Positions 1,583 to 1,645 of a stretch of 32,000 bases of DNA are shown here, in pieces. The position numbers were made by a program, and so were the translations under genes. Source of the stretch: Candidatus Hermodarchaeota archaeon (lineage in GTDB: Archaea; Asgardarchaeota; Heimdallarchaeia; Hodarchaeales; Hodarchaeaceae); contig JBHLKY010000003.1 in assembly GCA_048886185.1 (NCBI GenBank), positions 180,595 to 212,594 of the forward strand, in the 5' to 3' direction. Each line of letters opens with the position of its first letter. The stretch's first letter is position 1. The notes under the pieces are model-generated. The model was not told the DNA's origin, ran no database searches, and saw only the letters and a list, made by a program, of their open reading frames with translations.

Positions 1583-1645
1583 TTCCTCATTTTTCCAGAA
1601 CTTCATCATGAGTTTCAGTTAACCCAGTGGAGTTCACAGGGGGTT
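1583..1645 (-). ncRNA. tRNA-Trp intron 2 (37/38), 63 nt, box C/D 2'-O-methylation guide RNA
   Basis: D' CTGA (1618-1615), C' ATGATGA (1609-1603), D ATGA (1590-1587), degenerate C CTGTGA (1639-1634). Guide GTTCTGGA pairs with pre-tRNA TCCAGAAC. Guide CACTGGGTT pairs with AACTCGGTG. Confidence 0.85.

Follow-up and report, generated by a model that had tools for sequence, protein, structure and literature searches.

A tRNA-Trp intron of an Asgard archaeon as a probable box C/D guide RNA for C34 and C39

The intron at position 37/38 of a tRNA-Trp gene in an Asgard archaeon is best explained as a box C/D methylation guide RNA, a reading to which we assign a probability of about 0.75. The gene lies in the window, that is, the whole 32,000-nt stretch of DNA analysed here. 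From comparison with its relatives, the narrower proposition that this intron is a functional guide for C34 and C39 is very probable. A self-guiding tRNA-Trp intron is a device long known in other archaea; what is found here is a new lineage and an unusually compact form, and the known mechanism is unchanged by these findings.

The tRNA-Trp(CCA) gene extends over 1517-1715 of the minus strand, with G1 at 1715 and A73 at 1517, and it carries three introns. Excision of the three leaves a 74-nt tRNA, which ARAGORN calls as tRNA-Trp(cca). At default settings, neither ARAGORN nor Rfam reports the gene. The intron mode of ARAGORN miscalls it as tRNA-Pyl. The elements of the gene are as follows.

1715-1697, 1664-1646, 1582-1575 and 1544-1517, minus strand: exons of tRNA-Trp, the spliced product of which is called by ARAGORN
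1696-1665, minus strand: intron 1, 32 nt, in the D loop at 18/19, with a hairpin of 1695-1686 and 1680-1671
1645-1583, minus strand: intron 2, 63 nt, at 37/38 after G37, the predicted box C/D guide RNA
1574-1545, minus strand: intron 3, 30 nt, at 45/46 after G45, with a hairpin of 1573-1565 and 1559-1552
1550-1547, minus strand: 3' strand of the intron 3 central helix, facing nucleotides 43-40; 92.9% paired, with two compensatory pairs
1649, minus strand: C34, the wobble base, predicted Cm34; opposite the N+5 nucleotide of the D guide in 11 of 11 lineages
1581, minus strand: C39, predicted Cm39; opposite the N+5 nucleotide of the D' guide in 11 of 11 lineages

In an alignment of 14 full-length orthologues from the same genus (A2), pairing reaches 96.9% over the cloverleaf and the two hairpins in introns 1 and 3, and 13 pairs are altered on both sides. 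Two-sided changes affect seven of the ten pairs of the intron 1 hairpin, the central helix of that intron being weak; the hairpin of intron 3 is likewise backed by the 14 orthologues.

The host assembly (4.84 Mb, 35% G+C) encodes L7Ae, Nop5 and fibrillarin (PF01269, 263 bits; adjacent PF01798, 224 bits; PF01248 twice). The fibrillarin gene adjoins the Nop5 gene, and there are two L7Ae-family genes and two EndA paralogues. On contig C8 (47026-47280, 59474-61007 and 79836-80096), the fibrillarin-Nop5 pair and both EndA paralogues occur within about 33 kb. Sequencing runs containing the stretch are of sediment metagenome DNA only, with no RNA run among those listed.

Intron 2 can be laid out as a compact C/D RNA with the following parts.

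1640-1639, minus strand: 5' strand of the terminal stem, CC; invariant in all orthologues and co-varying across the class
1637-1631, minus strand: box C, GUGAACU; degenerate, with the RUGA core kept
1630-1619, minus strand: D' guide, 12 nt; N+5 is G1623, opposite C39
1618-1615, minus strand: box D', CUGA; the same in every same-genus orthologue
1614-1610, minus strand: 5-nt linker between box D' and box C'
1609-1603, minus strand: box C', AUGAUGA; unchanged in all same-genus orthologues
1602-1591, minus strand: D guide, 12 nt; N+5 is G1595, opposite C34
1590-1587, minus strand: box D, AUGA; its GA is also in the 3' strand of the intron 2 splice helix
1586-1585, minus strand: 3' strand of the terminal stem, GG; in the splice helix these two bases face C32 and U33

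Two 12-nt spacers and an internal C'/D' motif are typical of archaeal guides. The C/D motif is closed by a terminal stem of 2 bp (C1640-C1639 with G1586-G1585). Of the terminal boxes, the cores required for tandem G.A pairs (RUGA and GA) are preserved, and the remaining positions are non-consensus. Within the genus, the R of box C (G or A) is its sole variable position, and the GA of box D is invariant, with ACGA and CAGA as variants of the whole box; the UGA of box C and the GA of box D are invariant both in alignment A1 and in the class alignment A3. Box D' is CUGA also in two other relatives from the order Hodarchaeales and AUGA in two relatives from family f3. Across the class, only the UGA cores of boxes C' and D' are invariant, and both boxes are degenerate in some f3 and f5 relatives. 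The core of the D guide, GUUCUGGAA, does not vary in the genus.

Rfam families sR3 (RF01133) and sR40 (RF01297) have the same layout and the same guide cores (GGGU.U before CUGA, and UGGAGC before box D), and it is to these two that the relatives show their best, sub-threshold likeness. All Asgard scores stay below the gathering score of 41, which sets them apart from members of these families: intron 2 reaches 11.4 bits against sR3 over model positions 13-55 only, and Asgard relatives reach 37.4 and 32 bits over the full model of sR3 or sR40.

Both guides place the N+5 nucleotide on a base of the tRNA-Trp anticodon arm. The sequence-only reading had put G1595 opposite C34 and G1623 opposite C39; all its coordinates stand on the minus strand, and recomputation returns the duplexes that it had described. 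On the unspliced RNA, the D guide forms eight Watson-Crick pairs without interruption (1650-1643, from U33 to the third intron base, with 1594-1601), of which the mature tRNA offers six. The D' duplex, from A1583-G45 with U1621-C1629, contains 9 bp including two G:U pairs. It runs from the last base of intron 2 to G45 (1575), the final exon base ahead of intron 3 and thus the 5' splice site of that intron. When guides are shuffled and anchored at N+5, the observed lengths are reached at frequencies of 3.5e-5 for D and 3.5e-4 for D', and both together in 0 of 200,000 trials. The D duplex is short, with 8 bp on the pre-tRNA, and it comprises just 7 and 6 bp in the two species that diverge most. 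Wherever both the guide and the tRNA-Trp are known (11 of 11 lineages), N+5 of D falls on C34 and N+5 of D' on C39.

The intron is conserved in the manner of an exon. Twenty same-genus loci were recovered, and over the 14 full-length rows the identity is 0.95-0.98 for the exons, 0.96 for intron 2, 0.66 for intron 1, 0.72 for intron 3 and 0.44 for the flanks. Within the genus, 73% of the intron 2 columns are invariant, a share that matches the exons. A coding cause of this conservation is rejected, as no open reading frame of at least 60 amino acids overlaps 1583-1645. Variation in intron 2 is confined to positions outside the duplexes with one exception, the position opposite C41. In two species, C41 is changed to U41 together with a G to A change in the D' guide, a G29 to A change in the anticodon stem and a G to A change in the splice-helix partner in intron 3. 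Position 41 co-varies with three partners, therefore the three mutually exclusive helices on nucleotides 40-43 are all maintained.

The sequence-only reading had proposed co-variation of guide and target as a check, and it is seen at two levels. Within the genus it amounts to a single compensatory event common to two related genomes. Across the class, D' guides match anticodon stems as unlike as CUCGG, CCAAU and CCAGU. The D' duplex has a mean of 9.33 bp with the guide of the same genome, a length attained in 0 of 5000 permutations, and of 6.67 bp with guides dealt from elsewhere; for the D duplex the means are 8.78 and 7.76 bp, with 9 of 5000 permutations. This permutation test is inflated by kinship, and at least three separate families contribute to it. 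In the terminal stem, pairing at the two inner positions is 100%, and these pairs co-vary between CG, GC and UA over the class, where stems as different as CCCC/GGGG, UUUU/AAAA and UGGU/ACCA occur.

These patterns bear on two other explanations. Intron 2 could be a decaying relic of a guide that is kept for splicing or tRNA folding, with Cm34 and Cm39 either absent or made in another way. The degenerate boxes C and D, the 2-bp terminal stem, the short D duplex and the low Rfam score agree with a relic, and so does the dispensability of the intron in Haloferax, as that work is described in a later paper (Joardar et al. 2008, via PMC4090602). However, intron 2 does not share the free drift of introns 1 and 3, no change is seen in box C', box D' or the GA dinucleotides, and the guide is altered together with its target. 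Moreover, intron 2 is the sole match in the host genome to a covariance model of the intron core (R1), so that no second copy of the guide is found by this search. Taken together, these observations make a relic decidedly improbable.

Archaeal guides may have several targets. It is thus conceivable that one or both guides mainly target rRNA or another tRNA and that the match to tRNA-Trp is secondary. The rRNA genes are absent from the host assembly, in which models of 16S and 23S rRNA find no match, and this leaves some room for such a target. Nevertheless, the N+5 nucleotides of the two guides face positions 34 and 39, the same positions as in the system known from experiments, and the D' guide follows lineage-specific changes of the tRNA-Trp anticodon stem. 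A main target other than tRNA-Trp is, of all the explanations weighed here, the one to which we give the least credit, and its probability is very low. The preferred reading remains a guide for tRNA-Trp itself.

Homologues of the guide occur both inside introns and as separate genes. Model R1 finds a match in 19 of 21 same-genus genomes and an intronic copy in another family (G022), in which the register of the D guide differs and N+5 is still on C34; it also matches free-standing guide genes elsewhere in the class. A second model, R2, finds matches in 44 of 151 sampled genomes of the phylum. Among the out-of-class R2 matches that were inspected, all with E up to 1e-3, two are free-standing and five belong to tRNA-Trp genes with several introns, in each case within the one at 37/38. 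Intronic homologues are thus present in other Asgard classes.

Homologues that form separate genes carry canonical boxes and are found in families f2, f3, f5 and f24. They lie about 60-350 nt downstream of tRNA-Trp in f2 and f3, and about 130 nt upstream in the sole f24 case. Guides beside tRNA-Trp on the same strand are seen at L024:1198-1296 (G023), at L063, L066, L101, L105 and L106 (f3), and, upstream by about 130 nt, at L116 (G165). The tRNA-Trp gene that adjoins a free-standing guide has an intron without C/D boxes, and the two neighbours may be a co-transcribed tRNA-sRNA pair. In two genomes, G034 and G071, the tRNA-Trp gene was not found by the pattern GGCTCCAGA with a T-loop filter.

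The free-standing guides are informative on the substrate. In five lineages that have one, the D guide forms 8, 9, 10, 10 and 11 pairs with the pre-tRNA and 6, 8, 8, 8 and 8, respectively, with the mature tRNA. These guides reach one to three bases into the tRNA-Trp intron and follow the differing first bases of each intron. The match to the exon-intron junction is thus kept in relatives whose guide is a separate gene. A separate gene acts only in trans, and therefore the substrate in these lineages would be the unspliced pre-tRNA. The claim of the sequence-only reading that the guide acts in trans on pre-tRNA gains support from this comparison.

For the window, the following course of events is proposed. 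L7Ae, Nop5 and fibrillarin would assemble on the intron 2 RNA, and fibrillarin would make Cm34 and Cm39. Since the first three bases of the intron are required for the D duplex, the unspliced pre-tRNA would be the substrate. The guide would act in trans, either as the excised, probably circular intron or from a second pre-tRNA molecule. Nucleotides 40-43 would pair successively in the intron 3 splice helix, with the D' guide and in the anticodon stem. That the guide acts strictly in trans and on pre-tRNA is favoured by these comparisons with modest confidence.

The alternative is that, ahead of splicing, the intron assembles the RNP while still within the pre-tRNA and methylates C34 and C39 of its own molecule. 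For the naked 199-nt pre-tRNA, the fold of minimum energy does place the D guide on its own target in cis (1650-1643 with 1601-1594), forming the 8-bp duplex within the molecule in place of the intron 2 splice motif, and a cis model was proposed for Haloferax pre-tRNA-Trp, according to later accounts of that study (Bortolin et al. 2003, via PMC7994747, PMC6313347). Against this, the linkers to the terminal stem comprise only 2 nt (1642-1641) from the D target and 1 nt (1584) from the D' target, which would be too short for an RNP that contains both a guide duplex and a K-turn. Furthermore, homologous guides are separate genes in relatives, and a later Haloferax study, as summarized elsewhere, reported trans action (Singh et al. 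2004, via PMC4090602). Guidance in cis is therefore considered unlikely.

Action in trans is also in line with the way in which the guide and the splicing signals of intron 2 share bases. In the register set by the splice sites, G1588, A1587, G1586 and G1585 stand opposite C35-C32 and form a central helix with three of four pairs, with bulges AG^A and AA^A at the ends of the intron. The intron-side outer helix is nearly absent, and there is no within-genus variation that could serve as a check on the central helix. C34 and A1587 are unpaired in 14 of 14 orthologues, and the C34-A mismatch recurs in all lineages seen. The exact folding pathway is uncertain because the splice motif is relaxed in these two respects. 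A relaxed motif fits the presence of two EndA paralogues and an Asgard enzyme of broad specificity; Asgard EndA has been reported as a broad-specificity (alpha-beta)2 enzyme (PMC5829648).

The K-turn uses G1588 and A1587 for its sheared pairs and G1586 and G1585 for its stem, and these are the same four bases as those of the splice helix. The sequence-only reading had noticed that box D overlaps the 3' strand of the splice helix of its own intron; the overlap involves the GA of the box (G1588 A1587) and is seen in the host genus only. The same reading had held that assembly and splicing exclude each other in cis, and this stands as well: both the K-turn and the splice helix need G1585-G1588, therefore RNP assembly and splicing of intron 2 are predicted to be mutually exclusive on one molecule in this genus. 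The arrangement differs in G022 and other Asgard classes: a GAAG that follows box D supplies the 3' strand of the splice helix, and the outer helix of the splice motif is at the same time the terminal stem of the C/D RNA. The host genus has about 6 nt fewer, and a GAGG fills both the K-turn and the splice-helix role. On the sequences compared, the clash between box D and the splice helix appears to be specific to the host genus.

A second overlap concerns intron 3. Nucleotides 40-43 are the 5' strand of its central helix, so the D' duplex covers that helix, as had been claimed. These nucleotides appear to be under selection for three mutually exclusive helices in one RNA stretch. The further claim that the order of intron removal would matter is given up, since G45 is the end of the D' duplex regardless of intron 3. 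Only in one species does the presence of intron 3 add to the D' pairing, by one extra pair, and an encoded order of removal, of which the sequence shows no sign apart from the general competition between helices, was dropped as unsupported.

A more speculative proposal, which we regard as possible and no better than tentative, joins these points. The loss of about 6 nt would have fused the K-turn with the splice helix, so that a given pre-tRNA would be either bound by L7Ae or cleaved by EndA. Only the excised guide would then be active, and it would act on unspliced transcripts made subsequently. Asgard tRNA-Trp may keep the 37/38 intron for the reading of the junction by the guide, also in lineages in which the guide is now a gene of its own, and methylation would then have to precede splicing.

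The closest known system is the tRNA-Trp guide of Euryarchaeota. A tRNA-Trp intron with a median length of 65 nt nests a box C/D RNA that selects C34 and U39 (PMC4090602, PMC7994747). In Haloferax the guide is described as trans-acting and dispensable (PMC4090602, PMC7994747), and the published model has it act on pre-tRNA in trans (Singh et al. 2004, as reported in PMC4090602 and PMC7994747). In Thermococcus, the tRNA-Trp intron has 62 nt and occurs abundantly in circular form (PMC9014305). Based on published descriptions of the guides of Haloferax volcanii, Pyrococcus (sR50) and Thermococcus (Clouet d'Orval 2001 and Singh 2004, through PMC4090602, PMC7994747, PMC6313347), the features in common with the window are the 37/38 intron of tRNA-Trp(CCA) of about 62-65 nt; direction of D to C34 and of D' to position 39, with a D target across the exon-intron junction; and a need for L7Ae, Nop5 and fibrillarin, with trans action on pre-tRNA proposed. 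By the same descriptions, the window differs in its Asgard (Heimdallarchaeota) host, in its two further introns at 18/19 and 45/46, and in its degenerate boxes C and D (GUGAACU, AUGA). The overlap of the splice helix with box D and the terminal stem is listed as another difference; the two are separate in other Asgard lineages. Position 39 had been taken as a distinction, with Um39 in Haloferax and C39 here. This does not hold, as Cm39 is on record for tRNA-Trp of archaea (PMC6313347) and Pyrococcus has C39 as a predicted target (PMC7668247), to which the C of the window conforms.

Several Heimdallarchaeia guides near tRNA-Trp resemble the C/D genes beside tRNAs in Ignicoccus, Thermoproteus and Nanoarchaeum and the tRNA-snoRNA dicistrons of plants (PMC7994747). 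Unlike such free-standing genes, the guide of the window sits inside an intron, and both states exist in one class. In eukaryotes, the same Cm34 on tRNA-Trp is produced by Trm7-Trm734 (FTSJ1-WDR6), a protein-only system without guide RNA whose mechanism is not homologous to that of an intron guide (PMC6847430). A recent preprint on Asgard tRNA introns mentions neither Trp nor guides, and in the literature searched there was no paper that ties Asgard archaea to a tRNA-Trp intron guide.

The range of the self-guiding tRNA-Trp intron is thus extended from Euryarchaeota to Asgard archaea, and since it is found in both, the device is probably ancient in archaea. Asgard archaea are the closest prokaryotic relatives of eukaryotes, in which, by contrast, a protein enzyme makes Cm34 of tRNA-Trp. 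The comparison also provides evidence, from sequence alone, on an old question raised in Haloferax, which concerns cis versus trans action of the guide and the identity of its substrate.

A few minor observations concern tRNA genes and the neighbourhood. In one same-genus genome (G001), a tRNA-Trp 5' fragment that ends at U33 (L099, G001:C16, ~33140-33075) lies just upstream of the full gene, and a C/D intron with 3' exons and no 5' exon (L055, G001:C16:10631-10757) lies about 22 kb away; these fragments may be pseudogene pieces or a split gene. In the window, two same-strand genes are located upstream of tRNA-Trp, at 1964-2677 (minus) and 2678-3268 (minus), one of them with DUF434 and DUF5616 and the other a Ham1-family NTP pyrophosphatase. 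Two adjacent tRNA genes on the plus strand, at 21228-21353 and 21371-21475, match the Rfam tRNA model only with large insertions (37 and 23 nt in the one, 32 nt in the other) and are further intron-bearing tRNA genes.
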